A program made the position numbers and the translations under genes. The notes beneath the pieces were generated by a model. It made no database searches and had not been told where the DNA came from. It saw only the letters and a program-made list of their open reading frames with translations. Positions 1-57,445 of a stretch of 64,000 bases of DNA are shown here, one piece after another. Source of the DNA: Minisyncoccia bacterium (GTDB lineage: Bacteria; Patescibacteriota; Minisyncoccia; Phycocordibacterales; UBA6065). Numbering within the stretch: position 1 is the stretch's first letter; each line of letters starts with the position of its first letter. Location of the stretch: the NCBI GenBank assembly GCA_044233485.1, contig JBIIJY010000002.1, positions 8,047 to 72,046 on the forward strand, read 5' to 3'.

Positions 1-129
1 TGTAGTCTTACCAGCACCAGAGTGCCCGACAATGGTGATAAACTCCTTTGGGTTAACGGTAAATGAGACCTCATCAAGGGCTTTTGAGTTGTCGTTATAG
101 AGCTTCGTGACTTTATCAAAATAAATCAT
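1..129 (-). CDS. ftsE: ABC-type cell-division ATP-binding protein FtsE-like, N-terminal fragment (continues past window start)
   Basis: Reverse-strand translation from ATG at 129: MIYFDKVTKLYNDNSKALDEVSFTVNPKEFITIVGHSGAGKTT. Walker A GHSGAGKT is typical of FtsE. Confidence 0.55.
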   Translation of the reverse strand, partial: MIYFDKVTKLYNDNSKALDEVSFTVNPKEFITIVGHSGAGKTT

Positions 130-185
130 TCTTTCTATTTTATCCCCCAATGCTCCGGATGTACAGTCATTATGGTTGAGTATTT

Positions 186-725
186 TTAGGGATTAGCGAA
201 GCAACCCGCTTCTGTCCATGGGGAACCTATCGAGACACTCGATCGCCCACTGGAACCAACACAGAGATAACGTGTCGAGCCCACTCGCGCCGACTCACCA
301 GGCAAATAGACGATGATAGAAAAGAGTGAGTTGTCGGCCACCTGAGTACCACCGACGTACACGCAGTTTGTTGTACAAGCTGTACCAGTATTCGCGTACA
401 GTGAGTCACAGATTCTGACTGCCTCAGAGGCATACGTCCCAGAAAAAGCCTGTGCGGTACAGGTCGTTGATGTGCCAGCCCACCCACGTTTAAGATCGGC
501 AAAACTACCGTCATCAGCAAATTCTTGCATAAAGAGCTTTCTCATCTCGAGTATTGAGGTACGAATCGCCGCATCTCGGGCTCGACCACGAGCAGTATTA
601 AGTGAGGACAAGACTACGCTCGAGAGCATACCGATAATCGAAATGACCACGAGGAGCTCGATGAGTGTGAAGCCGGGGTAATACGGTCGGGCAATTGAGC
701 TAGTGAAAAATGACTTTAGACTCAT
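186..725 (-). CDS. type IV pilin / pseudopilin-like protein (prepilin N-terminal methylation domain)
   Basis: N-terminus GFTLIELLVVISIIGMLSSVVLSSL matches the class III signal peptide / N-methylation motif (G|FTLIE). Variable Cys-containing C-terminal domain. Confidence 0.75.
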   Translation of the reverse strand: MSLKSFFTSSIARPYYPGFTLIELLVVISIIGMLSSVVLSSLNTARGRARDAAIRTSILEMRKLFMQEFADDGSFADLKRGWAGTSTTCTAQAFSGTYASEAVRICDSLYANTGTACTTNCVYVGGTQVADNSLFSIIVYLPGESARVGSTRYLCVGSSGRSSVSIGSPWTEAGCFANP

Positions 726-783
726 ATGTACCTAAAAAGTATACCCTGACCGACTTTATTACTATCCCCACTCAAAGCTCGAG

Positions 784-1659
784 CTAGAGCCCTTTTTCTG
801 CGTCGATGAACTCCTGTATTTCACCCTCAAGCACCGCATCAGCATTAGAAGTCTCGATATTGGTCCGAACATCTTTAACAAGTTTGTACGGATGGAGAAC
901 ATAGTTGCGGATCTGATTTCCCCAGTCATTGGAAACGGTTTTTGAGATATAGAGACCTTTTTCTTGAGCTTTTTTCTCTTCCTGACGTAATTTATAGATT
1001 TTACCTTTGATGAGTTCTAATCCCTTCTCTTTGTTTTGTGCCATACTCCGCTCACTGGTCACATGGACAGAGAGCTTGGTCGGAAGGTGGACAATGCGCA
1101 CCGCCGTCTCTCGCTTGTTCACATTCTGGCCACCTGGCCCTCCTGCTTTTGCGGTAGTGATTTCAAACTCAGTCTCAGGAACTTCAATGTCAGTGTGTTT
1201 TTCAAGCTTGGGAATCACTTCTACCATAGCAAACGAAGTCTGTCGTAGCCCTTTTGCATTAAAAGGAGACTGTCGCACCAGACGATGGACTCCGGACTCG
1301 TTTTTCAAAGTACCATACACTCCTTTTCCTTGGATCTCGAGAGTGATGTTCCGATACCCTTTCTGATCATTTGGACTTTCGTCGAGCACATTGTAGCCCC
1401 ACCCGCGAGAATCAGCGTATTTAAGATACATTCGCATAAGCATTCCTACAAAGTCCTCAGCATCGTCTCCCCCCGCCCCAGCAAAAATGGTCATGACTGC
1501 ATCTCCAGAGTCATACGCCCCACCACCAGAGAGTTCAAGCTTAAGTGACTCTATTTCTTTGAGCGTGGCCTGTGCTTTAGCCTTATCAGACCAAAAGTCT
1601 GGTTGGTAGAGCAAAGCTTCGAGCTGGGCGAGTTTTTCTTCTTTAGGATTTAGTGACAC
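784..1659 (-). CDS. prfB: peptide chain release factor 2 (short N-terminus, no programmed frameshift, apparent GTG start)
   Basis: GGQ motif ([11 protein letters not shown]) and the RF2-specific SPF motif (QSPFNA). The first codon at 1659 is GTG. The upstream pilin gene stops 10 nt away, so no frameshift leader can fit. Confidence 0.85.
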
Positions 1660-1668
1660 CTACTCATC

Positions 1669-2313
1669 TTAATTGCTCACATAGCCGTCTGTCCAGTAAC
1701 CAAACGCCCAACATGATGTGGCCGGAGTAGCACCATCGAGAGTTGTGGCATTAGTGCCCCCGTCACGCGCCCGATCAATCATTGAAGCAGGTACCCCTTG
1801 GCACGCCCCATCCCCTCCTACCGCATGAACAATCAATTTGTAATTCTGATTTGCATCTGACACGTAGATATACTGAGTTGCAGCTCCATTTGTTGATCGT
1901 AGTGGATCTCTCGGTAGAGTCGGGTACAGACCACTTGAGACGAGTTCGGGGATCCAGTCAACGTGTGGACCAGCGCCAGTCGCCCCTTGGCAAGTAGGAA
2001 CTCCTCCGCGTACATACTGACGAGCAGTCAAACTATCATATGAAGTTCCACTAAAATTACTGTAGTGTCCATTCCAACCACACGAACCCGGGTAGAAACC
2101 ATTTTGAGCATAGTACGACTGGAGTGCCGTATTTATATTCCGAAGATCTTGTAATCGCACTGCTTGCCGAGCTTTTTGCCGACCAGTATTGAGAGACGAC
2201 AAGACCACACTCGAGAGCATACCGATAATCGAAATGACCACGAGGAGTTCGATGAGCGTGAAGCCAGTTAATCTTTTACAACGCACGAAACTAATTGCAG
2301 AGAACATATACAC
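1669..2313 (-). CDS. type IV pilin-like protein, paralogue 2
   Basis: GFTLIELLVVISIIGMLSSVVLSSLNTGRQKAR prepilin motif. About 70 nt of 5' coding DNA is near-identical to the other two pilin paralogues. Confidence 0.75.
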   Translation of the reverse strand: MYMFSAISFVRCKRLTGFTLIELLVVISIIGMLSSVVLSSLNTGRQKARQAVRLQDLRNINTALQSYYAQNGFYPGSCGWNGHYSNFSGTSYDSLTARQYVRGGVPTCQGATGAGPHVDWIPELVSSGLYPTLPRDPLRSTNGAATQYIYVSDANQNYKLIVHAVGGDGACQGVPASMIDRARDGGTNATTLDGATPATSCWAFGYWTDGYVSN

Positions 2314-2350
2314 CTAGTATACATGCAGAGCGGAGGGTGCTGTGGACAAG

Positions 2351-2425
2351 TGAGCCAAAGGCGAGGATCGAACTCGCGACCCCAGCTTTACGAAAGCTGT
2401 GCTCTACCAACTGAGCTACTTTGGC
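2351..2425 (-). tRNA. tRNA-Thr(CGU)
   Basis: Reverse complement GCCAAAG-TA-GCTC-AGTTGGTA-GAGC-A-CAGCT-TTCGTAA-AGCTG-GGGTC-GCGAG-TTCGATC-CTCGC-CTTTGGC-T folds as a cloverleaf with anticodon CGT. No CCA encoded. Confidence 0.85.
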
Positions 2426-2608
2426 TAAAAGTGCCACCGAGAGAGCAGCACAAGGACCGTTTATAGGTACGGCCGACGCAGAGGTAGTATCAACGCTGCA
2501 GGACAGCTACACAACCCTGGGTCTGCCACGTGCGCACTGGCAGGAAGTCAGGCGACGTTTGCTCCCTCGATAGCAGACTCATACTATCATTTTCATACTT
2601 CTAGGCAA

Positions 2609-3187
2609 TTATGGATTAGCATAACAGCCAGACTCAGACCACATATAAGCATCATTGTTATTTGAGAATCCGCTAGCTTGGGTAAGCCCTGCTCCGTCTA
2701 CTTCAGAAACTCCTCCGCTACTTCCCACACAAAGAAAACGATTGGCACCGGCTTGTTGCGATCTTCCGGGAAGATAGAATATACTTGAGTATACAGTGTC
2801 AGGATTAGAGCCAGCCCAGGCGATACTTGTATTCCCTAACCACGCGCATGTATTACTTGGGCAGGTACCGATAGTAGCAATATATGATTGACAGAGCCTT
2901 ACCATCTCACTAGCATAATTACCACTAAATCCCCCACTCGAGCACCCGCCACTAGTACCAAACCAGCCAGAGACGTCACCGTTGCCTTTAAGTTGTGTGT
3001 AACTTCCAGTATCAGCAAACTGTTGTGCGTAGAGCGTCCGTATCTGTGTTGCGATCTGCCGGACTGCTGCATCACGAGCACGCAGACGTGAAGAGTTGAG
3101 TGAAGCAAGAATGACACTCGAGAGCATACCAATGATCGCAATTACGACGAGGAGTTCAATGAGAGTAAATGCTCTGAGAGGCTTCAT
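2609..3187 (-). CDS. type IV pilin-like protein, paralogue 3
   Basis: MKPLRAFTLIELLVVIAIIGMLSSVILASL. Start placed at the internal ATG (3187) that gives a short leader before G|FTLIE. The longer ORF to 3289 would run into tRNA-flanking hairpins. Confidence 0.7.
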   Translation of the reverse strand: MKPLRAFTLIELLVVIAIIGMLSSVILASLNSSRLRARDAAVRQIATQIRTLYAQQFADTGSYTQLKGNGDVSGWFGTSGGCSSGGFSGNYASEMVRLCQSYIATIGTCPSNTCAWLGNTSIAWAGSNPDTVYSSIFYLPGRSQQAGANRFLCVGSSGGVSEVDGAGLTQASGFSNNNDAYMWSESGCYANP

Positions 3188-3297
3188 GTAAAATAAGTAT
3201 ATCTCAGTTTGAATATGTATTTTACGCACGCATGTGAACAAGGCAATGTTCCGGCTTTCAATTCCGGACGTATGCAAAGTCATTTGCATACTTCATG

Positions 3298-3603
3298 AGC
3301 CAATGACCAGAATTGAACTGGTGACCTTTCCCTTCGCTTCTACCTCAACTTCAAAGAAAATTAAACCTACTTATACTTGAGGGCTAGACTGTATCTTATA
3401 CCGCATCTTAATACGTGGTGTGGTACCCCTTGTCAGTCGTTCGGGCCCGGGTGCAATGCACTTTAGGACCACGGTCTTGTCCGGCAGGCCTGTGTGGTCG
3501 TCGGATGTTAACCGTAATTCGGGTTATCCAATCGGATTACTCCGAGAGGAGGCAACAATGAACTGTCACCATGGGAATGCTCTACCAACTGAGCTACATT
3601 GGC
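3298..3603 (-). tRNA. tRNA-Thr(GGU) interrupted by a 233-nt group-I-like intron in the anticodon loop (exons 3568-3603 and 3298-3334)
   Basis: 5' exon GCCAATGTAGCTCAGTTGGTAGAGCATTCCCATGGT, 3' exon AAGGGAAAGGTCACCAGTTCAATTCTGGTCATTGGCT. Spliced together they give a canonical 73-nt cloverleaf with anticodon loop AU-GGU-AA and T-loop TTCAATT. The 5' exon ends in U and the intron ends in G. The intron has an R-like element (GACTGACA), an S-like element (AAGATACAGTCT) and a P7-type pairing GACTG/CAGTC. Confidence 0.6.
3335..3567 (-). ncRNA. putative group I intron (self-splicing) within tRNA-Thr(GGU); no ORF inside
   Basis: See the tRNA feature above. Omega-G at the 3' end, U at the 5' splice site, R/S-like core elements. 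Confidence 0.5.
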
Positions 3604-3684
3604 TTATTAAAACTACAAAGATCTTCTTTCACTCTCAGGAAAGACTAATACTACTGTATTCTCCGCTTTTTTCAATCCACACCC

Positions 3685-6600
3685 TTACCTCCCCCTCCCC
3701 ATCACCCCCCTCGTCACCGGGCCAAAGAAGCCAAGAGCGGGAGTAATGTTGTTGGCTTTCTGGTAGCGGATGAGAGCAGCACGGGTAGCAGGGCCAAAGT
3801 AGAAGGTTTCGTTGCCAGGAGAGCCAAAGCCTGTCGTAGAGACAGTGAAGCCTTGTGAGTTCAAGAAGCGTTGGAGGAGCTGTACATCAGTACCGTATGA
3901 AGAGACGGTGAGACTACGGGTGAAGGTAGTGGGTGTAATGGGTGGTGGGAGGATGTTGGTGGTCGATGAGAGGCGTAGGAGTGTGGTGGTACCTCGGGGG
4001 GTGTTGACGACCACAGGAGCAGAGCGGCCGCCACCTCCTCCGCCGGAGCGAGAGATGGTGGTGACTACGGGAGCCGGGACAACAGTGAGAGTGAATTCTT
4101 GAGTATGGTAGAAGACTTGAGCCGCTGAGAGTGTATCAGTGATTTTGATACTGAAGGTAGAGGTGGTAGCGGTGGTTGGAGTACCACTGATGATGCCGGT
4201 GCTGGTGTTGAGAGAGAGGCCGTCGGGGAGGGTGCCAGAGGTGAGTTCATACGTAACAGTTCCCTGCTCTCCCTTAGGAGTGAGGAGGGTGAAATATGAA
4301 GTGCCGACCGTAGCCTGTGAGATGGTCGGTGAAGAGAAGGAGATCAGCTGGAAGAGGAGGAGGCGCCTTGGCGCTTGATCTGCGTAGTAGAGGATTCTAT
4401 CAGAATTATTAAACTCCATCGAGTAACCGTACTGAATGGCACTTTGCGTGACGGAATTCGTGTCGGTTATTGAAGTAAAATTAGTACTGTTAAGTATCGC
4501 CACCGCCCCTTCGTTATTTGCAATATCTGCCGTGTCATAAATTTTGACTCGGGCGACGTTGGACGCTTGTGCGTCCATGACATAGAGAAGTTTATTTTGA
4601 GAATCAAATGTAAGCGCATTTGGGCCAGTGAAGCCGGACTGTGTTGTCTCACTTACCTGTGCAGTGAAATTTACTTGCCCGAGTACATACGAAGCATCCA
4701 TACCGTTCGTAATACCACTGGAGAGATCGAAGACAAGAATGCGGTTGAACTGACCATCAGCTACAAACAAGAGTGAACGACCTTCATCAATAGCAATATC
4801 ACTAATAAAAGTACTTGATGCCGTTGGTGATGCCGGCTCTGTATCTGTCGTAAAATCCGGCTGCCCGAGCACATACGAAGCATCCATACCGTTGGTGATA
4901 CCACTGGAGAGATCGAAGACAAGAATGCGGTAATTTGACGGGTCATTTACAAAAAGTCGCTTATGAAGAGAGTCATATTCAATCCCATCGCCGTTGTAAC
5001 CAGCAAACTGATTTTCAGAAAGACCAGGAGAAAGAGTGGTGAAGTTTGTCGAACCAAGTACGTATGAAGCATTCATATTATCTACAACTCCATTTGAAAC
5101 ATCGAACACCAAGACGCGCCCGAAGTAATCGAGTACGAATAGTCGCTGCTCTTCATCATCATAAGTGATAGATTTTGAACCCAAACCAAATCTATTTGCT
5201 GTTGTAGTGGCGTTACATTCACGCTCAATGGAATCACAGCCAATTACCGCCTCTGGAGTGGTATCTACCGGACGACCACTGGCAGTGAGATTATACACTC
5301 GGACTTCACCGTTACCTCCCACAAAAAGTCTGTTGCGTGTCTCATCGACAGCAATCGCTATAGGAATAAGTCTATTGAATACCGGCTGATCATACACCTG
5401 ACTCTTAGAAAAGTTTTGATTTCCCTGCGAGTCCGTCTGGCCGAGTACTCTATATGCACTCATACCGTTTTCGATAGTTCCCGGACTCACATTAAAGACC
5501 AAAACTCGAGCGCGATCACTATCTGCCACAAACAGGTCGAGCTCACCGTTACCTCTGACATTAATCTGTAAATCTCCTGCAGAACCTACGTTATTTCCAG
5601 AGACAGATGGGTCATAGTCAGACCCTGTATAGTATGCGGAAGTAAAGTTGGGACCACCCAACACATACGTCGCATCCATACCATTGGTAATCCCCCCCGA
5701 GAGGTCGAAGATGAGGATGCGACCAAATTCAAAAACATACAGTCTGTTTTGATGAACGGTAATCGAACTAGGCGCATTAACAAAACTAGAGCCGGTCATT
5801 CCTGTAACTCCCGACTCGAAATCCGGTTGCCCGAGTACATACGACGGATCCATGCCATTCGTGATTCCACCCGAGAGATCGAAGACAAGGATACGGTAGG
5901 AATATGCATCAAGTACAAAAAGTCTCTCGCTCACCTCATCGTAAAAAACATCATTTACATCAATCGTAGAACTCGCCGTCAAACTGTCTCCAAGATTTGT
6001 TTCCAAATCTGGCTGCCCGAGTGCATACGAAGCATCCATATTGTCCATAATCCCAGCACTCATATCAAAAATAAGCACTCGATTTAAGGTTTGATCTGTC
6101 ACAAATAATCGCTCAGTTGTCGTACTGTAGTGAATTTTTCCTACTGCAGCGAAGTTGTTTGCAAGTGGTGATAATGGTGAATCCCCTGTCTCAAAATCTG
6201 GCTGCCCGAGCACATACGACGCGTCCATACCATTGGTAATTCCCCCCGAGAGGTCGAAGACGAGAATGCGATTCCAAAGGTAGTCTGCAACATAGAGGAG
6301 TTGATTCACCGAGTCAATTTCGATTCCACTTGCTGCGAACTCACGGGCATTTGCGTCAACTGGACTATTGTTAGTCACAAAATCTGGTTGCCCCAGAACA
6401 TAGTCTGCAACATTATCAATAAGTTCATTATCAGTCGTAAGATTGTAGACCAAGATACGTGTCTCACCATCGAGAACATAGAGCTTGTGATGCACTGGAT
6501 CCAGAGTAATTGAAAAAGGCCACTGGAAACCGTTGGCGCTCGCATCGATATTCCCGCCGTATGAAGTAGTAAAGCTCGGATTACCACTTACATCAAACGT

Positions 6601-19813: not shown

Positions 19814-22800
19814 TTATTCCTTGAGAATCACATTAATAAGCTTGTCCTGTCTGAAGATTATACGCATAACCACCTTTCCTGCAAGCCATTTCGAGAGGCC
19901 ATTCTCAGTGTGGATAACTTCCATCACCTCCTGCTCACTCATTCCCCGCTTTACTGACACCGTCCCGCGAGTTTTACCCTGCACCTGCACCACAAGCTCT
20001 ACCGTATCAGTAATAAGCTTCGTTGCGTCCGCTACTGGCCAGGACGCCACGACAACGGACCCTTTGTTGCCAAGAGCGTTCCAGAGCTCTTCAGCCATAT
20101 GTGGAGCAAATGGAGCTAGAATCTTCACGAGAAGTTCAAAATCCTTCTTAGGAATCTTAACTTCTGCCTCAAGAGCATTAGTGAAGATCATCAATGCGGA
20201 AATTGCTGTGTTGAATTTCATCTCAGCGATATCACTCGTCACTTTTACAATAGTCTGATGCAACTTCGTCTCCACTGCAGGAGAAAGTACCACCGACGAA
20301 TCTTTGTACTCGACTTTCTCAGATAATCCCCATACTCGCTCGAGAAAACGACGAACACCCACCATCCCCGAAGTATTCCAAGCAATGGTTTCGGCAAATG
20401 GCCCCATGAACATCTCATACACGCGCATTGTATCCGCTCCGTACGTCTTGACCATTTCATCGGGATTGACCACGTTTCCGAAACGCTTACTCATCTTGCG
20501 ACCATCCTCACCCATGATGAGACCAACACTTTGAAGCTTCGTGAATGGCTCTCGAGTCGAAACCACGCCGATATCATAGAGAAACTTGTGCCAGAAACGA
20601 GCATAGATGAGGTGACGTGTCGCATGCTCTGCCCCACCAACATAGAGATCAACCGCATTCCAATACTGTTCTTTCACTGGATCAACAAGTGCTTTATTAT
20701 TTTTCGGATCCATATAGCGGAGATAATACCAAGATGACCCTGCCCACTGTGGCATCGTATTGGTTTCACGATACGCTTTGCACTCGCGATTAAGTACTCG
20801 ATGTATATCTTCGAAGTTCGAAAGGATCTGCGTGTCGGGCAATACTTCATTTAATTTCTGGAAACCATGATATCCCCACGCGCAGCCGACAAGCTTCCTG
20901 CGATCGAGGAGATTTTCAAGCTCATACACATCAGCTTTAGTGTCAGTGAAGTAGTAAACGTCCCGTACACCCACCTTCCAATCACGACAGATTTGCTCTA
21001 TCTTTTCTTCTTTCGAATGATGATCTTCGTACGCAAGAATATGTGTCGGTTTTAAACCAGATTTCTTCATTGCTTCAACCACATAGATACGTGAACCGGA
21101 AGATACCACAGCAATTTTTGTATTCTTGAATTTCTTGATCTCCTTAATGAAGTCATGGAAGAGATCGAATTTAGAATTCTTCATTATTTCACCGAACTTT
21201 TTCGACCATTGAAGAGCCTCTTCAAGCCGAGTTTGAGTAAGCATCTGATCTCGTGTGTGGAAAGGTTTTTTGTCAAAATACAGCACCATATCACGAGCCG
21301 CTTCCTCTTCATTTAAAGAGTCGCCAATCTGAACTTTTGCCTTGAGTGTTGCCATCCAGGTATCGCCAAGTACACCGTCAAAGTCAAAGACAAAGTAGCG
21401 AGGCTTATTTTTCTCCGCAACACAGCGCGGACAGGTCGTCTCGACCCACTTGGTAATTGCCGCGAGTGGCGACTCTCCGGTACCAGTCGGTTCATATGAC
21501 TTCACATTTGGAAGTTCTACCGGTAGATCGGCATCGTCGATCAAAAATGTTCCATGCACCGGGCACGTTGCTACAGGAAAAGGCTCGCCCCAGTATCGCT
21601 GACGTGAGAACACCCAATCCTTGAGCCGGTACTTCACTTCCCAGGTACCACCGAGCGCTTGCGTGATTTCTTTTCGACTGGCGAATGCTTCTTTACCACT
21701 AAACGCACCCGAGTCGAGTAGATACCCGTCGCCGGTATACACTCCCTGACCACGAGTGACCAGGTTCCAACCATGGAGATAGGCACGAGTATCGCCTGCT
21801 TCTTTTCCACTCTCAATGAAAGTGTGTACCGCATCTTTTGCCACCCACTCATATGAGTGCTTCGCCAGCTCTGCAAGCTCTATCGGATCCTGAGCTCCGT
21901 CTTTGAGCTCGACCAGCACAGTATGGATCGTGCTCTTTTGATTGTGTTTTTTCCCTGGATGATAAAAATGACTGATGGATGGACTTTGGAACTCGGTGAC
22001 ACGTGCAATATTTCGGTACCCAGTTTCTTCGACGAGTTCTCGAAGTGCGGCATCACTTGGCTTCTCTCCACTTTCAATTCCGCCAGTAATAAATGTTTTC
22101 CAACCGACTTTCCAGTTCAAACACAAGTACGAATCATTGTTCCAATGCTTCGCAATCACAAGGACGACATCTCGCGTGACTTCTGGTGCATCTTGCTTTG
22201 GCGTACACTGCCCAGTCGTATCGACATAGAGCGGAGCGACTACTGTCTGAATCGGAAGTTTGCATGTTTGGGCAAATTCAAAATCACGCTCATCATGAGC
22301 TGGCACCGCCATCACTGCTCCGGTACCATAACTTCCAAGCACATAGTCAGCAACATAGACCGGCACTGGCTTTTTTGTAAATGGATTGATTGCCTGTACA
22401 CCCTTCAAGACGACGCCGGTTTTTTGCGCCACCTCTGTCCGTGTTCGCTCAGTCTTTTTTAGTGATTCCTGCACATACGCCGATACTGCTTGAGCATCTG
22501 CGCCACCACGGGCAGTATATTCTTTGACGAGAGCATGCTCTGGAGCGACCACAACATAGGTAACTCCGGCAATCGTGTCCGGACGAGTAGTGAATACGTG
22601 AAGCTCACTATGGGCACTCTCAGCTTCATGAGTAAGCGCAAAGGTGAGACGTGCTCCTTCACTGCGACCGATCCAGTTTCGCTGACTCTCCTTTATTGAC
22701 TCTGGCCAATCAAGAAGTGGCTTAGGAAACCCTCGAGATGGATCTTTGAGGCGTAGTAGCCATTCAGGAAGTTCTGAATTGACCATGTGCGGTGGAGCGA

Positions 22801-23851
22801 ACTCACTTTCAGAAACCCACAAAATTTCGTTTTGTGCATCTTCACCTGGAGCGAGGGCGACACGAGCATCACTTTGAAGTTCAAAAAGTACCGCGGTCGA
22901 GATTGAGATGCGATTTTCGCCTTTATGCTTTGCAAAATAGTGAGCTTCGACCGGCGCGCCGAGTGTACGAACAAATTTCAAATCGGTATACCCTGTCTCT
23001 TCACGAACTTCACGCTGTGCGGCTTGCACAGCATTCTCCCCTTCCTCAATTCCACCAATAATAAGCGTATCCCACGCAAACTTCTTATTTCGAATAATCA
23101 AATATTTCTTTGACTTTGGGTCAAAAACAATCGCATGAGCCGCCTGGCGAGTGACACTAGGCTTGCCTGATTGAGGTGGATTCACGTGATCTACAACCTT
23201 TGGGATCGGTGGCTCGGCAACCGCATCGAGATCAGCCAAAAGTCGATCGGCATAATCCGTGATTTTGAGTACCCACTGACGAAGTGGTTTTTGCTCCACA
23301 AGCGAGTCACAACGCTCACAGTGTCCATCGACGACGTCTTCGTTTGCCAAACCGGTCTTACATGAAGGACACCAGTTGATCGGCTCAAATGACTCATACG
23401 CAAGCCCCTTCTCGTGCATCTTCGCAAAGACCCACTGAGTCCATTTATAAAATGCTGGGTCAGTCGTATTAACCTCTCGTGACCAGTCATAGTCAAGACC
23501 GAGAATCTCGAGCTGTTTTTTATATCGCGCAACATTTTTCTTTACTGAAACCTGCGGATTAGTTTTTGTTTTGATCGCATAGTTTTCTGCCGGAAGGCCG
23601 AAAGCGTCGAACCCCATCGGGTGCAACACATTGAAACCCTGCATACGCTTCATACGAGAGATGATATCAGTGGCAATATACCCTTTTGGGTGCCCGACAT
23701 GGAGCCCCTCACCAGACGGGTATGGGAACATATCGAGAATGTAGTACTTTGGAGCCTGAGTAGCCAGTGCCTCAGCTGTTTTATATACCTTTTTTTGAGC
23801 CCACACTTTTTGCCACTTTTTTTCTATCTTGGCTGGGTCGTATTTTTTCAT
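19814..23851 (-). CDS. leuS: leucyl-tRNA synthetase with three inserted hydrolase domains (2x NUDIX, 1x HAD); 1345 aa
   Basis: LeuS signatures: MFPYPSGEGLHVGHPKGY, PMGFDAFGLPAEN, WPESIKESQRNWIGRSEG, YRLKDWVFSRQRYWGEPFP, KMSKRFGNV and a C-terminal domain. Insertions carry Nudix boxes (GGIEEGENAVQAAQREVREETGY; GGIESGEKPSDAALRELVEETGY) and HAD motif I (FVFDFDGVLGDTW). Confidence 0.85.
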   Translation of the reverse strand: MKKYDPAKIEKKWQKVWAQKKVYKTAEALATQAPKYYILDMFPYPSGEGLHVGHPKGYIATDIISRMKRMQGFNVLHPMGFDAFGLPAENYAIKTKTNPQVSVKKNVARYKKQLEILGLDYDWSREVNTTDPAFYKWTQWVFAKMHEKGLAYESFEPINWCPSCKTGLANEDVVDGHCERCDSLVEQKPLRQWVLKITDYADRLLADLDAVAEPPIPKVVDHVNPPQSGKPSVTRQAAHAIVFDPKSKKYLIIRNKKFAWDTLIIGGIEEGENAVQAAQREVREETGYTDLKFVRTLGAPVEAHYFAKHKGENRISISTAVLFELQSDARVALAPGEDAQNEILWVSESEFAPPHMVNSELPEWLLRLKDPSRGFPKPLLDWPESIKESQRNWIGRSEGARLTFALTHEAESAHSELHVFTTRPDTIAGVTYVVVAPEHALVKEYTARGGADAQAVSAYVQESLKKTERTRTEVAQKTGVVLKGVQAINPFTKKPVPVYVADYVLGSYGTGAVMAVPAHDERDFEFAQTCKLPIQTVVAPLYVDTTGQCTPKQDAPEVTRDVVLVIAKHWNNDSYLCLNWKVGWKTFITGGIESGEKPSDAALRELVEETGYRNIARVTEFQSPSISHFYHPGKKHNQKSTIHTVLVELKDGAQDPIELAELAKHSYEWVAKDAVHTFIESGKEAGDTRAYLHGWNLVTRGQGVYTGDGYLLDSGAFSGKEAFASRKEITQALGGTWEVKYRLKDWVFSRQRYWGEPFPVATCPVHGTFLIDDADLPVELPNVKSYEPTGTGESPLAAITKWVETTCPRCVAEKNKPRYFVFDFDGVLGDTWMATLKAKVQIGDSLNEEEAARDMVLYFDKKPFHTRDQMLTQTRLEEALQWSKKFGEIMKNSKFDLFHDFIKEIKKFKNTKIAVVSSGSRIYVVEAMKKSGLKPTHILAYEDHHSKEEKIEQICRDWKVGVRDVYYFTDTKADVYELENLLDRRKLVGCAWGYHGFQKLNEVLPDTQILSNFEDIHRVLNRECKAYRETNTMPQWAGSSWYYLRYMDPKNNKALVDPVKEQYWNAVDLYVGGAEHATRHLIYARFWHKFLYDIGVVSTREPFTKLQSVGLIMGEDGRKMSKRFGNVVNPDEMVKTYGADTMRVYEMFMGPFAETIAWNTSGMVGVRRFLERVWGLSEKVEYKDSSVVLSPAVETKLHQTIVKVTSDIAEMKFNTAISALMIFTNALEAEVKIPKKDFELLVKILAPFAPHMAEELWNALGNKGSVVVASWPVADATKLITDTVELVVQVQGKTRGTVSVKRGMSEQEVMEVIHTENGLSKWLAGKVVMRIIFRQDKLINVILKE

Positions 23852-31993: not shown

Positions 31994-32017
31994 ACATCGG
32001 AGGTGAATATTCGAAAC

Positions 32018-32053
32018 GCCCGGACTCAGAGTAGTCCGGGCGCTTTTTGTTTT
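32018..32053. terminator. bidirectional rho-independent terminator
   Basis: GCCCGGACT-CAGA-GTAGTCCGGGC followed by GCTTTTTG. Confidence 0.7.
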
Positions 32054-32058
32054 GAACA

Positions 32059-32688
32059 TTATCCCGAAATTACTGGCAACTTGCCGACGTATGTTTTGTT
32101 GTTGATCAAATCCACGAGGACTTTCGCCACTTTCTTTCTACTGGTCAGTAGTTCGGCTGGGCCACCTTCTGTCAGGCGATATATCTTTGCTTCTGCATTA
32201 CTTTTGCTGAGCTTGAGCACGCGGACGACTGTGAAGTCTAACCCTGAGTCTTGCAATACTTTTACATGCCCAATTCCGTCATTGACCCGATCTGGATCTA
32301 CGATCGCGACAAGTACATTAAGCACCTTGTCGACAAGAGACGGAGTATCATTTTCTGCTCTCGCGCCGGTGCCGGTGAGGCTGAGGATTCTAGTAATCCC
32401 GCACTCTTTCATGGCGCGGGTAATATTGGTAATTCCCTTGGTCTGCATCAGAGGGTCGGACCCTTTAATATGCCCTAAAACACTGATCACGGCCTCACTA
32501 CCCTGGAGCGCATCGCGAACACTCTCATAGTCCATCACATTCCCTTTTTTAATAATCACATCGCCTGAGAAATATGTACTCGAAGCATCGCTAAACACAA
32601 ACGCCACAACTTCAAAGCCCAAGGCTTTGGCATAGTTCACCACCTCTACCCCTGTCCTTCCATCAGCACCGAATATGCAGATTTTCAT
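32059..32688 (-). CDS. NAD(P)H-binding (NmrA/SDR-like) oxidoreductase
   Basis: MKICIFGADGRTGVEVV Rossmann GxxGxxG. Confidence 0.7.
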   Translation of the reverse strand: MKICIFGADGRTGVEVVNYAKALGFEVVAFVFSDASSTYFSGDVIIKKGNVMDYESVRDALQGSEAVISVLGHIKGSDPLMQTKGITNITRAMKECGITRILSLTGTGARAENDTPSLVDKVLNVLVAIVDPDRVNDGIGHVKVLQDSGLDFTVVRVLKLSKSNAEAKIYRLTEGGPAELLTSRKKVAKVLVDLINNKTYVGKLPVISG

Positions 32689-32781
32689 AGATACAGTATA
32701 AAGTCGTAGAACTCTTTGTAAATCTAAGCTGTTACTCGTAGATTTTCGAGGACTGAGACATTTGAGATATCGCGAGAAAAA

Positions 32782-33372
32782 TTATAGTTGACTCTCGATT
32801 GTCTTCTTCGACTGCGCATCGATAATTCTAATAATGAAGCTGAATACACTTGTCACCATGTAAGCAATAAAAAGTGTGCAGATATTTGCCAGCAAAAATA
32901 GCAACAATATTACTGTGAAAATATACTCTTTGAGTACGAAGGTAAAGATTATCGACGAAGTGACAAAAGTAATACCGTAGAACATGCCAACAATTTTAAA
33001 AAGCTTTCTTTTAAACACTTCGTGATTAAAATCGTTTCGAAAGAAAGAGACTGCTTTGATTACAAATTCATATATAAAGGCAAAACCCACAATCATAGAG
33101 AGTATAACCCCCTTCATTTCTTCCGCATCAATGACACGACTATACGATCCATTTGAATCGAAAAAATTAAAATGAGAGTTGAAATCTGAGATAAGACTTA
33201 GCAGATTATCTATGAGGAGAAGACCTCTGTCGTTAGTTAAAAAGAGTGCACTTATTGATAGTAAGACAAAGAACACATACAGAAATAAAGATATGACGTA
33301 GGGAGTATACAGTACGTTTCTGACGATTCTTGTCCCGAATATAAGAACTTGTCTTATGGTTATGGCCAGCAT
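32782..33372 (-). CDS. hypothetical multi-pass membrane protein in AT-rich DNA
   Basis: Several hydrophobic helices. About 35% GC. Confidence 0.4.
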   Translation of the reverse strand: MLAITIRQVLIFGTRIVRNVLYTPYVISLFLYVFFVLLSISALFLTNDRGLLLIDNLLSLISDFNSHFNFFDSNGSYSRVIDAEEMKGVILSMIVGFAFIYEFVIKAVSFFRNDFNHEVFKRKLFKIVGMFYGITFVTSSIIFTFVLKEYIFTVILLLFLLANICTLFIAYMVTSVFSFIIRIIDAQSKKTIESQL

Positions 33373-33586
33373 GTTTGTACTGGATTATTTCAGTATTGTA
33401 CCGTACATATGAGTTTATATAAGCATTGTAGCACTCTCGTGCACTATCATTATCTCGATTCAGCGATGTTATAGGGATTCGGTCACATATACATTTTGTG
33501 AACCTGTAGCGCGGCTTTCAGAGCTAACAAGTACTAGGAAATAGCAACCTGTGAACTTAGACTTGAGTAAATTCTTAATGAATGAA

Positions 33587-34108
33587 TTAGAAACCTGAAC
33601 AAGTTAAGATTAGTACGGAATTTTTTTCATCTCCTTCCATATATCCATTCAACGAACTTTTATTCCAAGGAGTCTCAGAAGGAATAAATGTTTTACCGGC
33701 TTTTGTAACCGTATCTTTACACCAATTTTCTCGATTTACAGCGTCGGCCTTACCGAAAGAAATTCCTTTATTCAATTCAAACTTCTTATCAAGTACTGTT
33801 CCAGTTTCAATAACCTCTATACAACTTTTCTTATAGTCATTATTATGAGTACCAGCACTCACTCCAGGATTTAGAGAGATATTTTCACAAATTGTTACAT
33901 CATTATAATAAATAGCAACAGTCTGGATACATGCAGGCGAAAGAAAATCACTAACTTTATTACAAATTTCAACGTAAGACATTGAGGGGCTTACATTTGT
34001 AACCTTATTGGTTGATGTTTTTTTAGAAAAATAGAAAAATGCAACAACTAATACTACGACAATAATTGAGAGCATGATTCTTATGAATCCACTTTGATAG
34101 TTTCTCAT
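33587..34108 (-). CDS. hypothetical secreted/membrane-anchored Cys-containing protein in AT-rich DNA
   Basis: N-terminal TM helix IMLSIIVVVLVVAFFYF. Confidence 0.4.
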   Translation of the reverse strand: MRNYQSGFIRIMLSIIVVVLVVAFFYFSKKTSTNKVTNVSPSMSYVEICNKVSDFLSPACIQTVAIYYNDVTICENISLNPGVSAGTHNNDYKKSCIEVIETGTVLDKKFELNKGISFGKADAVNRENWCKDTVTKAGKTFIPSETPWNKSSLNGYMEGDEKNSVLILTCSGF

Positions 34109-34136
34109 ACCAAAATTATACTACACAATGTTCACT

Positions 34137-34315
34137 TGTGACCCTATCGGGATTCGGTAACTTAATTGTAAAGGCCACAATAATTTGTTCGTCGTCACTC
34201 GTAGATTTTCCAGCCCCGGACTCGACTGTTTTTCTTGCTAGAAAAACATGTCTCTGTCTTCACAAAATTTAAAAGACTGGAGCAGTCCAGATTTTTTGGA
34301 AACCTGTTTTTGTGA
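34137..34315 (+). repeat. direct repeat copy 1 (about 180 bp) beginning with a 22-nt copy of the tRNA-Glu 3' end; att-like
   Basis: TGTGACCCTATCGGGATTCGG at 34137-34157 matches the tRNA-Glu 3' end at 35358-35378 (20 of 21). About 145 bp are roughly 95% identical to copy 2. Confidence 0.7.
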
Positions 34316-34494
34316 CCTAGACGCTTGGATTTCAGAACTTTTTAAACAAAGAAATAGCATAAAGTTATCCATTCAAAATTTATCAAAGTTAGTTTGTAAA
34401 AACAGAAAACCCACCGAAGCGGATTTCCGTTGGTGAGTTATTTCTCGAGAATTTTGCAAGTTTTCTCTAACTTAGTGGACGGACCACCATTCTT

Positions 34495-34920
34495 CTATTT
34501 TTCTAAAGCGGCTTTTAAGCGGGCCTGGATAGCGTTTGCATTCCTTAAGAATTTTTGAGCTTGCTTCACAAGGTCTGATGTCTCCTGTAACAAAGATTCC
34601 AGATCTCCTGTGACGGCGTCACTCGCAGACTTTTTGTTTTGTGCATCCAAGAAATCAAGTGCCTGCTCAATCTTGATTCTTACATTTCCACCGATTTTTT
34701 CCTCCTCAAGACTTTTGGCCCACCTCACTAAAGTAGGGTGAGCCATGTTCTGAAAGGTAGGAGACGGGCGAAGCGCTAGGGCCATTGAGCGAAGGTTTTT
34801 GAAACGCTTCCGAGTCCGCAAAAAGCGCTGATGAAGGGTCTGTATTTTCATAATCGAGTCAGTTTCTACCAAGAAAATTATCATTATTTCTTTTAATAAG
34901 CAATATTTTTCAGAACTCAT
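34495..34920 (-). CDS. hypothetical protein (141 aa) between the two repeat copies
   Basis: ORF only. Confidence 0.35.
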   Translation of the reverse strand: MSSEKYCLLKEIMIIFLVETDSIMKIQTLHQRFLRTRKRFKNLRSMALALRPSPTFQNMAHPTLVRWAKSLEEEKIGGNVRIKIEQALDFLDAQNKKSASDAVTGDLESLLQETSDLVKQAQKFLRNANAIQARLKAALEK

Positions 34921-35074
34921 TAAAAACGCTGCTGTATATTATCAATTTGCAAAACCGCAAGAAAAGGAGCAGATTGTTCGTGTAATATTTTCAGAACTTT
35001 CAGTTTCCCAAAATACGTTGAATTATAAGTGCAAAAAAGAATTTGAGTGTATCGAGAACCGACTAAATACTATT

Positions 35075-35255
35075 TGTGACCCTATCGGGATTCGGTAACT
35101 TAATTGTAAAGGCCACAATAATCTACTCGTCGTCACTCGTAGATTTTCCAGCCCCGGACTCAGCTGTTTTTCTTGCTAGAAAAACATGTCTCCGTCTTCA
35201 CAAAATTTTAAAAGAGTGAAGCAGTTCACTCTTTTTAGAAACCCGCTCTTGTGGT
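35075..35255 (+). repeat. direct repeat copy 2 (about 180 bp) beginning with a tRNA-Glu 3'-end fragment; att-like
   Basis: Near-identical to copy 1 over about 145 bp. Confidence 0.7.
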
Positions 35256-35315
35256 CACGCATAATTTTTTGCTAAAATTTGCGCGACCCCGCCTCGCGCC
35301 GTCGCGCTCCGGCCG

Positions 35316-35360
35316 TCACAATAGTAAAAAGCCACGTGTAGTGGCTTTTTACTATTGTGA
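35316..35360. terminator. perfect 20-bp inverted repeat hairpin (terminator) overlapping the tRNA-Glu 3' end
   Basis: TCACAATAGTAAAAAGCCAC-GTGTA-GTGGCTTTTTACTATTGTGA. Confidence 0.6.
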
Positions 35361-35432
35361 CCCTATCGGGATTCGAACCCGAGTTTAAGGCTTGAGAAGC
35401 CTCCGTCCTAGACCAGACTAGACGATAGGGCC
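35358..35432 (-). tRNA. tRNA-Glu(CUC)
   Basis: Reverse complement GGCCCTA-TC-GTCT...GGAC-G-GAGGC-TTCTCAA-GCCTT-AAAC-TCGGG-TTCGAAT-CCCGA-TAGGGTC-A. Anticodon CTC. No CCA. Confidence 0.8.
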
Positions 35433-35637
35433 GTGGGTACGTTATAACACATTTTCTCTTTTATTTCAAAAACTTGATTTCGTTTTGGGGGAGACGTATC
35501 ATGGTGAGAGCAGGTTCCTCTGCGATGTGTTAACTCGAGCGTGGGCTGTTCATTGGTTTTTCGACCATCGCCACGCTCGGGTTTTCTTTATAATCGACTC
35601 CTTTTATTTTAGAAAAGTTGGTATACAGTTAACCTAT

Positions 35638-36831
35638 ATGCGAATACTCGCGATTGAAACAAGTTGTGATGATACATCCGTCGCCCTGCTTGAAGCGTCT
35701 GGAACGCTTGAGGCACCACACTTTAAAGTACTCTCGCATGTCACACAAAGCCAGATTGAACTTCACCGTCCTTATGGCGGTGTCTATCCAAACCTTGCAA
35801 AGCGTGAGCATGCCCGTAATCTAGTACCAGTACTCGAGACCGTCTTGACCGAGAGTTCCTCTATCACCCCGGCGTCAGGTACAGACAAATTTCTCACCAC
35901 CCTGCGTCTACACTTGAAGCGAATTCCAAAACTCTTGAGTCGAGAACCAGAGCTAGCTCAAGCAATTTCAGATTTTATTCCTCGTATTCAAAAGCCTAAA
36001 AGTATCGATACTATCGCCGTCACTGTCGGGCCTGGACTCGAGCCGGCGCTCTGGGTCGGCATCAATTTCGCCCGAACACTTGGAACACTTTGGAATCTAC
36101 CCGTCATCCCCGTCAATCACATGGAGGGGCATATCGTCTCTACACTACTTGCATCCGAAGGATCTCCAAAGCTCGCTCAAGTCGAGTTCCCCGCCCTCTC
36201 ACTCCTTGTCTCTGGCGGACACACAGAGCTTGTCCGTATTGGCGGATGGGGTAACTACACCATACTCGGAAAAACAGTCGACGACGCTGTCGGTGAAGCC
36301 TTCGACAAAATTGCTCGGATCCTCAAACTCCCCTATCCCGGTGGCCCAGAAATCTCAAAACTGGCACAAGAGTTTCGTGCAAGTGGTCGTGAACAACATG
36401 TCACTCTCCCTCGCCCGATGTTGCATTCACCTGATTTGAATTTTTCATTTTCTGGCCTGAAAACTGCGGTGCTTTATTACACCCAAAAGAAAGGTCTAAT
36501 TGACCATGAACACACAAAAGCAATTTGCGCGGAAGTAGAGGAATCAATCACTGAAGTCCTCGTCTCAAAAACAGAAGCGGCTCTACGTGCCGGCAATGCC
36601 CGTACTCTCATCATCGGTGGTGGTGTCAGTGCCAATACCTATCTGCGCGAGAAACTTGTCGCTCTCACTGACGAACTCGACGTACGACTCCTTCTTCCAG
36701 AAAAAACTCTTTCAACTGATAATGCGATCATGATCGGGATTGCCGGGTATTTCTCTCTTCTTCAGAATCGCAAAAGTGGCGTCGACCGAGCTCTTGGTAA
36801 CCTCAGTCTTGAGCACATCAAGACTCTGTAA
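35638..36831 (+). CDS. tsaD: tRNA N6-adenosine threonylcarbamoyltransferase TsaD (Kae1/YgjD family) with an internal insertion of about 50 aa
   Basis: MRILAIETSCDDTSVALL, HMEGH metal motif, LLVSGGHTEL, GEAFDKIARILKLPYPGGP. Confidence 0.85.
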   Translation: MRILAIETSCDDTSVALLEASGTLEAPHFKVLSHVTQSQIELHRPYGGVYPNLAKREHARNLVPVLETVLTESSSITPASGTDKFLTTLRLHLKRIPKLLSREPELAQAISDFIPRIQKPKSIDTIAVTVGPGLEPALWVGINFARTLGTLWNLPVIPVNHMEGHIVSTLLASEGSPKLAQVEFPALSLLVSGGHTELVRIGGWGNYTILGKTVDDAVGEAFDKIARILKLPYPGGPEISKLAQEFRASGREQHVTLPRPMLHSPDLNFSFSGLKTAVLYYTQKKGLIDHEHTKAICAEVEESITEVLVSKTEAALRAGNARTLIIGGGVSANTYLREKLVALTDELDVRLLLPEKTLSTDNAIMIGIAGYFSLLQNRKSGVDRALGNLSLEHIKTL

Positions 36832-50045: not shown

Positions 50046-51254
50046 TTAGCCTACGTTTTGAGCGACGTTATAGATAGGAATAAGCACTGAAGCGAGGAGT
50101 ACACCCACGCCCAAACCAAGCATCACAATCATGAGCGGTTCAATGAGATCCACAAGCGTATCGACGGCATTGACCACCTCTCGCCGGTAGAAGTTTGCCA
50201 GTGTTGCGAGGATTTTACCAAGCTGTCCCGTCTCTTCCCCCACTTTAATCATGGCAATCATAATACCTGGAATCTCCTTGTGCTCACCAAGACCTTCGGA
50301 GAGTGCTTTACCACCTTTAATCGCATCCGTCGCTCGGGTCAAAATTTCTTCGAAAATTTTGTTATCTACCACGCCAGAAGTGAGTTCAAGGGCTCGCACC
50401 ATCGGAATTCCAGAGATAAGCATTGTGTTCATGTTGTCGGCAATACGCGACAAGTATAATTTTCGAAATAGACCTTTTACAGCTGGAATCGTGATCTTGA
50501 GCTTATCAAGTACGATGCGGCCAGTTTTTGTTCTGAAGTAATAGACAATTGCCCCAATACCGACAATGAGCAGTGCAATGAACAAGAAAATATACTGAGT
50601 CATGAACTTACTCAAAGCCAAAACGACCTGTGTGTAGATAGGAACCGCCTGTCCAGAGTCTGTGATAATGGTACTGATTTTCGGAATCACCACCGTCAAC
50701 ATGAGCGCCATCACCGCAAAGAAGGTGAAGACAACGAAAGCAGGATAGATGAGAGCGTTTCGGGCTTTTGAAGCCACTTCATACGTACGGTCTAGATAGT
50801 CAGCTAGGAAATTAAAAATCTCATCGAGCTTACCAGACTCCTCACCAGACTTCACCATGTTTACGTAAAAGTCCGAAAATACATCTTTGTGTTTTGAGAG
50901 TGCTTTTGAGATAGAAAGACCACCCTGAATATCATCCGCGACTTCAGAGAGTTTTATTTGAAGTGCCTTATTCTCGACTTCACCAGAGAGCAGTCTAAAG
51001 ATACGCAAAGCCGACACTTGAGCCTCGAAGAGGGTCGCCATCTGTCGGGACAAGATGACCACGTCTTTGTTCGATATTCGATTGAAAATCGCTATATCAC
51101 CACCGAGGATTCCACCTGTTTTCTGTGGCGTGATGCTTGCGATCACCAAACCTTGACGCTGAATACTAGCAATAGCGTTCTCTATGGAGACGGCCGTGAT
51201 TGTCCCCTCTCGCTTCTGCCCTGTCTGATCAAGTGCACTATAGTTATAAATCAT
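50046..51254 (-). CDS. pilC: type IV pilus assembly platform protein PilC (GspF family)
   Basis: Duplicated GspF domains with multi-pass TM segments. Confidence 0.85.
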   Translation of the reverse strand: MIYNYSALDQTGQKREGTITAVSIENAIASIQRQGLVIASITPQKTGGILGGDIAIFNRISNKDVVILSRQMATLFEAQVSALRIFRLLSGEVENKALQIKLSEVADDIQGGLSISKALSKHKDVFSDFYVNMVKSGEESGKLDEIFNFLADYLDRTYEVASKARNALIYPAFVVFTFFAVMALMLTVVIPKISTIITDSGQAVPIYTQVVLALSKFMTQYIFLFIALLIVGIGAIVYYFRTKTGRIVLDKLKITIPAVKGLFRKLYLSRIADNMNTMLISGIPMVRALELTSGVVDNKIFEEILTRATDAIKGGKALSEGLGEHKEIPGIMIAMIKVGEETGQLGKILATLANFYRREVVNAVDTLVDLIEPLMIVMLGLGVGVLLASVLIPIYNVAQNVG

Positions 51255-51262
51255 AATTGTAA

Positions 51263-52324: not shown

Positions 52325-52377
52325 ACGATTAAGTATATAGGAAAAACAGCAAAACTCTTCATACCTGTGAAGAGTCT

Positions 52378-52764
52378 CTACTGAGCAAAGAGAGCGTCTA
52401 CCTTTTCCAAAAGCGCTGAGGGGATGGTTTCTGACTTTACAATATAAATACTCACACCAATCTTTGAAGCCCGAGTAATATCTGATTCTTGGTTTTGATT
52501 GGAAAGTACCCCGAGTTTTGCCTGAGGCACTAAACCCTCTTTCTTAATAGTCGAAAAAAATTCAATCCCATCCATCACCGGCAACACCACATCAGAGAGG
52601 ATAATGTCTGGCACGACGCCGTCACGGAGTTTCTTAAGTGCATCAAGCGGAGCTGGCGACTTGATCACTTCATAACGGCCACTATTACTAAACTTCACCT
52701 CCCACATCTGTAAAAGCATCGGGTCATCATCCACAAATAGTATTTTTCGCTTTGGAGTTTCCAT
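52378..52764 (-). CDS. single-domain response regulator (CheY/PilH-like receiver)
   Basis: KILFVDDDP...DIILSDVVLPVMDG. Phospho-acceptor Asp context. 128 aa. Confidence 0.75.
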   Translation of the reverse strand: METPKRKILFVDDDPMLLQMWEVKFSNSGRYEVIKSPAPLDALKKLRDGVVPDIILSDVVLPVMDGIEFFSTIKKEGLVPQAKLGVLSNQNQESDITRASKIGVSIYIVKSETIPSALLEKVDALFAQ

Positions 52765-52766
52765 GG

Positions 52767-54479: not shown

Positions 54480-54482
54480 GCG

Positions 54483-54974: not shown

Positions 54975-54975
54975 A

Positions 54976-57427: not shown

Positions 57428-57445
57428 ATATTTGTAGTATATCAG

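Follow-up and report, generated by a model that had tools for sequence, protein, structure and literature searches.

We analysed a stretch of 64,000 nt (the window) on contig JBIIJY010000002.1 of the Minisyncoccia bacterium assembly GCA_044233485.1, in which three type IV prepilin genes, here named pil1, pil2 and pil3, are interleaved with prfB and two tRNA-Thr genes. Judging from sequence comparison, it is likely that these are ordinary, separately expressed pilin paralogues which evolve by birth and death, and that one local event between pil1 and pil2, either an ectopic gene conversion or a chimeric fusion, has affected their 5' ends. The initial annotation had placed three pilin genes at these positions, and our analysis confirmed it: all three are prepilin-type open reading frames (ORFs) on the minus strand and match both PF07963 and TIGR02532 above cut-off. 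No specific pilin equivalog model was matched by their products. In the following, W is the window genome, R a relative found on the single Logan contig L002, and X one that is more distantly related, on contig L096; W1 and W2 stand for pil1 and pil2 of W, and R1, R2 and X2 are named likewise. CPR denotes the Patescibacteria (candidate phyla radiation).

The three genes carry the copies of an 86-nt direct-repeat family (D1, Table 1). It had been claimed that about 70 nt of DNA at each 5' end is almost the same, which is true only of pil1 and pil2. These two are identical at 52 of 54 nt and at 74 of 81 nt, with an exact run of 38 nt, whereas pil3 agrees with either of them at 43–44 of 54 nt. 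Unrelated CPR pilins with almost the same peptide are identical at 37–46 of 54 nt, compared with the 52 of pil1 and pil2. We counted identical codons for each pair and estimated the expectation from the codon usage of 32 other ORFs of the window. The excess was significant for pil1 and pil2 (20 of 31 codons, 10.0 expected, P = 2 × 10−4), and the corresponding values were 11 codons for pil1 and pil3 (9.8 expected, P = 0.38) and 13 codons for pil2 and pil3 (8.7 expected, P = 0.05). Within the tract of 27 residues, pil1 and pil2 have 20 of 27 codons in common against 8.9 expected (P = 6 × 10−6). A control from the same genome was available in a fifth pilin gene, pil5 (P0187), which lies about 400 kb into the 681-kb source contig and encodes the identical 27 residues (GFTLIELLVVISIIGMLSSVVLSSLNT). 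Its codon identity is at chance level, with 8 of 27 codons shared with pil1 and 7 of 27 with pil2. Thus, the similarity of pil3 is the minimum that protein conservation and codon usage impose, and that of pil1 and pil2 is not. For pil3 this is the outcome that the initial annotation had itself named as refuting its reading.

The tract is bounded on both sides, the leaders upstream and the pil1 and pil2 heads downstream being unrelated. The leaders, which had been described as identical, differ in length and sequence among all three genes (pil1, MSLKSFFTSSIARPYYPG; pil2, M(Y)MFSAISFVRCKRLTG; pil3, MKPLRA). That of pil1 has 17 residues ending in Gly, after which the mature protein begins with FTLIELLVVISIIG. 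The cleavage site lies between Gly and FTLIE in pil1 and pil2, and between Ala and FTLIE in pil3, where Ala and not Gly occupies position −1; Ala at −1 is also found in 8 of 66 members of the pil1 family. The helix segments, likewise said to be identical, are so over 27 residues of the mature N-terminus in pil1 and pil2, but six of these residues are different in pil3. What the N-termini have in common at the protein level reflects the constraint usual for pilins, comprising the prepilin-peptidase site, Phe at +1, Glu at +5 and the hydrophobic assembly helix.

Complete divergence of the C-terminal domains was found for the pil2 head only, which has no similarity to the head of pil1 and is unrelated to that of pil3. 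pil1 and pil3 have homologous heads (42% identity, E = 3 × 10−32), both ending in GC[FY]ANP; the pil1 head belongs to a widespread 'GC[YF]xNP' family of Parcubacteria. Hence pil1 is a mosaic, with a head homologous to that of pil3 and 5' DNA that matches that of pil2. Database searches gave 1516 homologues of pil1, nearly all of them unnamed or annotated as Patescibacteria prepilins, and 5281 of pil2; no database record was found on look-up for the 212-aa pil2 product itself. An AlphaFold2 model of pil1 built from 66 homologues (mean predicted local distance difference test score, pLDDT, 92.7) has the lollipop fold, with a long N-terminal helix (residues 21–72, 52 residues) and a globular alpha/beta head of strands and helices. 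In a Foldseek comparison with the PDB, ranks 1–6 and 8 among the best eight matches were type IV pilins.

The protein encoded by pil2 resembles the type II secretion pseudopilin GspG in a segment after the helix, and it gave weak matches to TIGR01710 (49.7, cut-off 88.85) and PF08334 (16.4, cut-off 21). Unlike GspG proper, it stays below both curated cut-offs, and the window encodes a PilT-type retraction ATPase and PilM, which point to a pilus and not to a secretion system. On these scores pil2 was not assigned to GspG.

Each of the three genes is complete: it has an ATG and a leader, followed by the conserved 5' region, and is preceded by a TATACT box. The boxes lie on the minus strand at about 740–745, 2316–2321 and 3196–3201, that is, 8–14 nt before each pilin ATG. 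Orthologues in R have a TATACT box 7–9 nt before their likely starts, and similar −10-like boxes occur 6–7 nt upstream in L096 and L008. This arrangement suggests separate promoters and leaderless or near-leaderless pilin mRNAs.

We compared the locus with its relatives. R has the same gene order as W, with 78% identity between the pil1 proteins and about 73% nucleotide identity across the genes. Per 54 nt of the 5' tract, W1 and W2 differ at 2 positions and R1 and R2 at 5, and the orthologous pairs differ at 6 (W1–R1) and 5 (W2–R2); W1 and R2 differ at 4. Paralogues within a genome are thus as close as, or closer than, orthologues between the two genomes. X2, a true full-length pil2 orthologue (64% protein identity), differs from W2 at 15 positions, and the synonymous sites of the tract are saturated in this outgroup. 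The two genes must be old because their heads belong to different families. Closer paralogues together with saturation in the outgroup point to ectopic gene conversion, or to a chimeric origin of pil1, near the common ancestor of W and R. We regard recombination or gene conversion at the shared segment around that time as quite probable.

The events may be pictured as follows. About 55–80 nt at the 5' ends of pil1 and pil2 would have been homogenised by ectopic gene conversion; alternatively, pil1 would be chimeric, with a head of the pil3 type joined to a 5' end of the pil2 type. Either event would fall in or after the common ancestor of W and R, and further conversion may have followed in the W lineage. 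In this scheme pil1 and pil3 would represent one head family and pil2 a GspG-like pilin, all three being presumably substrates of the PilM/B/T/C machinery, which is encoded 47 kb away in the same window. The pilin family would otherwise evolve by gene birth and death, with no programmed switch. In fact, pil1–3 sit inside strings of housekeeping genes, and related genomes scatter their pilin genes alike. Ectopic gene conversion and concerted evolution are familiar in bacterial multigene families such as tufA/tufB. The present pair is similar in having a short tract of excess synonymous identity and nearby direct paralogues that are closer than orthologues. However, the tract of about 55–80 nt lies in otherwise non-homologous genes, which gives a mosaic and not the homogenisation of a whole gene.

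The earlier idea that the 5' cassettes next to tRNA genes are a substrate for recombination is borne out for pil1 and pil2 by their excess synonymous identity, but adjacency to tRNA genes is not general. A pilin-like ORF was present in 10 of 85 CPR loci (79 of them centred on tRNA-Thr), and a general association of pilins with tRNA-Thr was rejected.

Several points weigh against the explanation by conversion or fusion of separately expressed pilin genes. The presumed conversion tract is short and its 5' border falls exactly at the start of protein conservation, so that an unusual nucleotide-level selection on the pil1/pil2 pair remains conceivable. The orthologue comparison has one relative at a useful distance (R) and one outgroup (X), and its counts are small. 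The Ser/Ala difference at +11 was rejected as a marker for the direction of conversion because it is polymorphic in the pil1 family (30 Ser and 35 Ala among 66 sequences). The promoters are consensus matches only. As to function in a pilus, Ala at −1 may make pil3 a poor substrate for cleavage, the PDB matches of the pil1 model are weak (best E = 7.6 × 10−3, TM-score 0.48), and the window ORFs of at least 150 aa that were scanned with Pfam include no prepilin peptidase (Peptidase_A24/PilD).

Selection at the nucleotide level could also keep the two 5' ends alike without any recombination, acting through a shared fold of the mRNA, a target site for a regulatory RNA, or a choice of codons that serves insertion of the helix into the membrane. 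The start of the identity tract exactly at the conserved peptide fits this explanation, as does the finding that the four pil1 and pil2 copies of W and R lie within 2–7 differences per 54 nt. However, the peptides encoded by pil5, by pil3 and by the pil2 gene of L096 are the same or almost so, and these genes are at chance level (7–8 of 27 codons; 15 differences in 54 nt), so the constraint would have to act on the adjacent pil1/pil2 pair only. No RNA family matched over the segment either. We consider such selection an unlikely cause.

In Neisseria, the silent pilS copies have neither a promoter nor the conserved 5' coding part, and what they pass on is the variable head. The initial annotation suggested pilin antigenic or adhesive variation at the present locus, for which the 5' cassettes would have to serve as handles so that heads are swapped at high frequency as in pilE/pilS. 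There is some resemblance, since a real recombination footprint exists between pil1 and pil2, the 38-nt exact repeat is long enough for RecA-type pairing, and the pilin content of the locus varies between relatives. As in Neisseria, the recombination would be non-reciprocal between pilin paralogues, and a G-rich motif lies upstream. This G-quadruplex (G4)-type motif, GGGGGGTGATGGGGAGGGGGAGGTAAGGG (3710–3682, minus strand), is one of two in the window and lies about 520 nt upstream of pil3. It spans the stop and coding tail of the neighbouring gene for a large surface protein and is not kept in R (L002), which makes it doubtful as a Neisseria-like element.

The structure of the locus differs from that of pilE/pilS in the decisive points. 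All copies are full genes with a −10-like box, and neither a motif scan nor a repeat search detected silent or 5'-truncated pilin cassettes in the 64 kb. The homogenised tract is the conserved part, and hence no epitope would be changed by its exchange. Moreover, the 5' repeats are direct and bracket prfB. A reciprocal crossover between them would delete release factor 2, and only non-reciprocal conversion could be tolerated.

Heterogeneity between strains in the C-terminal regions, which programmed variation would produce, was not seen either. The W population is represented by five contigs from at least four other samples, which are 99.95–100% identical to the window over the parts that they cover. 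Beyond W itself, pil1 is covered by two complete contigs, pil2 by one complete and one partial, and pil3 by three. Across the W contigs there are 2 single-nucleotide polymorphisms in 4115 nt, one of them nonsynonymous (N61Y in pil2), and protein clusters at 90% identity hold 1–2 sequences for each pilin. Short-read contigs break off within the repeated 5' segment (at 627, 2218, 2228 and 2239). Since an exact repeat of 38 nt interrupts short-read assembly at the pilin 5' ends, such contig ends are to be expected and are no evidence of variation. We also searched metagenome contigs for the shared cassette on other heads. An exact 47-mer gave 0 matches in a collection that missed even known contigs of the JGI, and a 23-mer fitting all four copies found 3 unrelated pilins in the same collection, at least two of them from other phyla. 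Programmed variation of the Neisseria type appears very improbable here.

A constant 5' end with differing 3' parts also bears a superficial resemblance to tfpQ/tfpI or to the pilV shufflons, where, as in the Moraxella Piv or R64 systems, an invertase swaps pilin C-terminal segments behind a constant 5' end. For the present genes we give site-specific shuffling of this kind hardly any weight. All three have one orientation, and no relevant inverted repeats were found flanking them. The only inverted repeat in 1–3800 is an 18-nt match between prfB and a tRNA gene that is not conserved in L002. In addition, none of the ORFs of at least 150 aa scanned with Pfam in the 64-kb window has a recombinase, integrase or invertase domain.

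Birth and death of pilin genes can be followed in the relatives. In R, pil3 is reduced to an in-frame remnant of 34 codons (MKSLRAFTLIELLVVISI joined to NDPAYAWSEPGCHANP; L002 838–951), in which the N-terminal helix is fused to the last 16 residues. In the pil2 gene of R, 8 bp are duplicated in tandem (GGTACAAC twice; GGTACAACGGTACAAC; L002 at about 1396–1411), which causes a frameshift, and the truncated product is on record from 2 contigs. In X and in the contig that carries the pil2 relative P0124, a pil2-type gene directly follows the large surface protein gene, with no prfB behind it. The X contig (1.9 kb) has no match to the window over its remaining part, and ARAGORN finds no tRNA on it; the gene table of the P0124 contig lists a tetratricopeptide repeat protein and MurJ downstream of the pil2-type gene.

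In other CPR genomes (L022, L055, L068 and L091), tRNA-Thr(CGU) lies 6–36 nt after an intron-bearing tRNA-Thr(GGU), and pil3 looks like an insertion between two once-adjacent tRNA genes. Elsewhere, pilins of the pil1 family occur after rpmG, between transketolase halves, and between HIT and pgk. A 195-aa pilin stands between the N- and C-terminal transketolase genes in L010 (8704–9291) and L011 (3596–4183) and is absent there in L012 and L013, all of another Parcubacteria lineage. This presence and absence is another case of pilin gain or loss inside a housekeeping string.

Two likenesses were observed near pil3 and pil1. On L002, a segment made up of the final ~19 nt of tRNA-Thr(GGU) and the ~35 nt that follow occurs a second time after about 150 nt (614–650 and 763–798). 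Between the two copies lie about 110 nt without a counterpart in the window, and the copies adjoin the pil3 remnant; they look like a scar left by integration or by a local duplication at the 3' end of the tRNA. The spacer before pil1, TGGGGATAGTAATAAAG (735–765, minus strand), resembles the spacer before ftsE, TGGGGGATAAAATAGAAAG (132–160, minus strand), and the likeness is weaker in R (L002 2680–2700 and 3262–3285). It may represent a target duplicated upon insertion of pil1 between prfB and ftsE.

A more general reading would be that the conserved 5' segment with its close-set promoter is a portable recombination handle, from which Patescibacteria build chimeric pilins that are gained and lost in strings of essential genes. 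The gap separating the pair of tRNA-Thr genes, the prfB–ftsE junction and that of the transketolase halves would then be insertion sites. It would mean slow but real adhesin diversification for host-dependent cells. We consider this wider idea unlikely.

For Nanosynbacter lyticus TM7x, about 12 pilins in four loci and two pili are described, and it is typical of Patescibacteria to have several pilin genes at dispersed sites, their N-termini conserved and their heads divergent (PMC11623550). The present genome resembles this picture. Several pilin genes are spread over separate loci of a small genome, the PilD-type N-terminus and helix are conserved with diverged heads, the models have the lollipop shape, and the machinery is type IVa pilus (T4aP)-like with PilB, PilT, PilC and PilM. 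However, W is Parcubacteria/Paceibacteria-like and not a member of the Saccharibacteria, and it is known here from sequence alone. Its pilin genes lie in strings of essential genes (prfB, ftsEX, tRNAs) and not in pilus operons. W also has a pair with homogenised 5' DNA, which PMC11623550 does not describe, a term search of that paper having given no hit for recombination.

The locus misses the defining features of Neisseria-type and invertase-type variation and has those of ectopic gene conversion. It reveals no new mechanism. What it adds to the known picture is only the short, controlled 5' homogenisation or chimerism between adjacent, otherwise unrelated pilins, plus gene gain and decay in relatives. 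Among the host-attachment devices of Patescibacteria, type IV pili have the best support, and changes in the pilin repertoire bear on host range. In this respect the locus is a small, clean illustration of how a pilin 5' end can be chimeric or converted and of how strings of essential genes gain and lose pilins.

The features are listed in Table 1. Every feature in 1–3800 lies on the minus strand, and the order in the direction of transcription is tRNA-Thr(GGU) with its intron, pil3, tRNA-Thr(CGU), pil2, prfB, pil1, ftsE and ftsX. Three small unassigned ORFs sit between the PilB-like gene and the PilM gene. The 5' DNA of the fourth prepilin-like gene has only chance-level identity to pil1–3.

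Table 1. Coordinates of the pilin locus and of the pilus genes in the 64,000-nt window
Feature	Position	Strand	Basis or remark
ftsE start	129–1	−	ftsX next in overlapping contig L006
pil1, prepilin, 179 aa	186–725	−	ORF; PF07963, TIGR02532
pil1 copy of shared 5' coding segment	589–674	−	repeat family D1; from codon Gly−1 on
prfB, release factor 2, 291 aa	784–1659	−	PF03462 and PF00472
pil2, prepilin, 212 aa from ATG 2307	1669–2307	−	gene call in L006; ORF to 2313, GTG 2313 possible
pil2 copy of shared 5' coding segment	2180–2265	−	repeat family D1, 91% to pil1 copy
tRNA-Thr(CGU), uninterrupted	2352–2425	−	ARAGORN; Rfam RF00005, 68.7 bits
Structured G+C-rich spacer	2440–2576	−	folding
Promoter-like TTGCCT-16-TAGTAT	2608–2581	−	consensus match
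pil3, prepilin, 192 aa	2609–3187	−	ORF and gene call; PF07963, TIGR02532
pil3 copy of 5' coding segment	3087–3172	−	repeat family D1, 72%
tRNA-Thr(GGU), intron-split	3297–3603	−	exon 1 3603–3568, intron 3567–3335, exon 2 3334–3297
NHL/He_PIG/peptidoglycan-binding surface protein, 1016 aa	3685–6735	−	3' end starts the string upstream of tRNA-Thr(GGU)
Type IV pilus machinery	50046–57466	−	PF00482, PF00437, PF00437+PF05157, PF11104
PilC-like	50046–51254	−	Pfam scan
PilT-like	51263–52324	−	Pfam scan
PilB-like	52767–54479	−	Pfam scan
PilM	56297–57466	−	Pfam scan
Fourth, divergent prepilin-like gene, GFTLVEMLVSIAIF...	62893–63741	−	motif scan; PF07963, 24.2 bits

The interleaving with prfB and two tRNA-Thr genes is correct as to gene content, but the second tRNA-Thr is not a plain gene: tRNA-Thr(GGU) is split between nucleotides 36 and 37 by an intron of 233 nt. 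In acceptor stem and D arm this tRNA is very similar to tRNA-Thr(CGU). Its anticodon loop, AUGGU/AA, is interrupted after U36 by the intron, whose last base is G, and A follows at position 37. Default ARAGORN and Rfam (including RF00028, at gathering and permissive thresholds) missed this tRNA and its intron. The intron mode of ARAGORN finds the tRNA, places the splice two bases earlier and labels it Arg(GCG) with an intron at 34/35; U20, the Thr-like body and A37 argue for Thr(GGU) rather than Arg(GCG).

The insertion is predicted to be a group I intron, as indicated by the U at the end of the 5' exon, the G at the intron end, the canonical spliced tRNA and a conserved core. Judged by eye, GACUG...CAGUC can pair as a P7 helix and AAGAUACAGUC resembles the classical S element. 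A core scan of species-representative genomes gave 79 places, among them 76 intron-bearing tRNAs to which the core strings GACUGACAAGGGG...AAGAUACAGUC are common; most carry the label Patescibacteria and several carry other labels. All 45 strictly parsable homologues, like the window itself, read AU-GGU, then the intron beginning and ending in G, then AA. The intron is 91% identical between W and R, compared with about 73% for the flanking genes. Such 'divergent group I introns' at 36/37 of tRNA-Thr(GGU) have already been published for three complete genomes of Patescibacteria, with the report that RF00028 misses them and that ARAGORN mislabels the tRNA as Arg(GCG) 34/35 (PMC13011429, mSystems 2026). 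Our intron agrees in tRNA, insertion site, RF00028 failure and ARAGORN label, and nothing essential differs. The occurrence in 76 species-representative genomes suggests that it is far more widespread than the three genomes of PMC13011429. Because the intron hides tRNA-Thr(GGU) from default scans, genomes can appear to be without that tRNA.

The spacer directly upstream of tRNA-Thr(CGU), which follows the promoter-like sequence, is about 140 nt long and G+C-rich, with a helix of 15 bp that closes it (folding energy −64.6 kcal/mol, z = −2.2). It is probably co-transcribed with the tRNA. The spacer is absent from L002, which has 46 nt at this site against 183 nt in the window. Rfam gave no match for it, and none of the fetched loci has a homologue; a permissive Rfam search gave only weak chance matches with E > 1 (mir-3492, SNORA16 and group II). 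It may represent either an inert insert or a small RNA that RNase P sets free.

The prfB product has the SPF and GGQ motifs, and TIGR00020 was matched over profile positions 99–350 only. It is without the N-terminal ~65 residues (most of domain 1) and without the usual programmed +1 frameshift site. In W the gene starts 9 nt past the pil2 stop, and the orthologue in R has 292 aa (L002 1774–2652). A prfB scan of species-representative genomes gave 81 pattern matches and 0 confirmed ones, the representatives not including this lineage. The 5' coding part of prfB (1602–1619, plus strand) is 94% complementary to the D-arm and anticodon-stem region of tRNA-Thr(CGU) (2394–2411, plus strand), on the same transcript strand. 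This 18-nt complementarity is kept at only 10 of 18 positions in R and is probably due to chance, despite a rough expectation of ~0.01 in the region.

Two further observations were made elsewhere in the window. A leucyl-tRNA synthetase ORF of 1345 aa (19814–23851, minus strand) has extra internal NUDIX (residues 235–362) and HAD-like (residues 821–975) domains. In 32000–36000 the G+C content is 0.39–0.41, compared with ~0.47 elsewhere, and several ORFs without Pfam match (32782–33372, 33587–34108) lie next to tRNA-Glu (35357–35432); this region may be acquired DNA.

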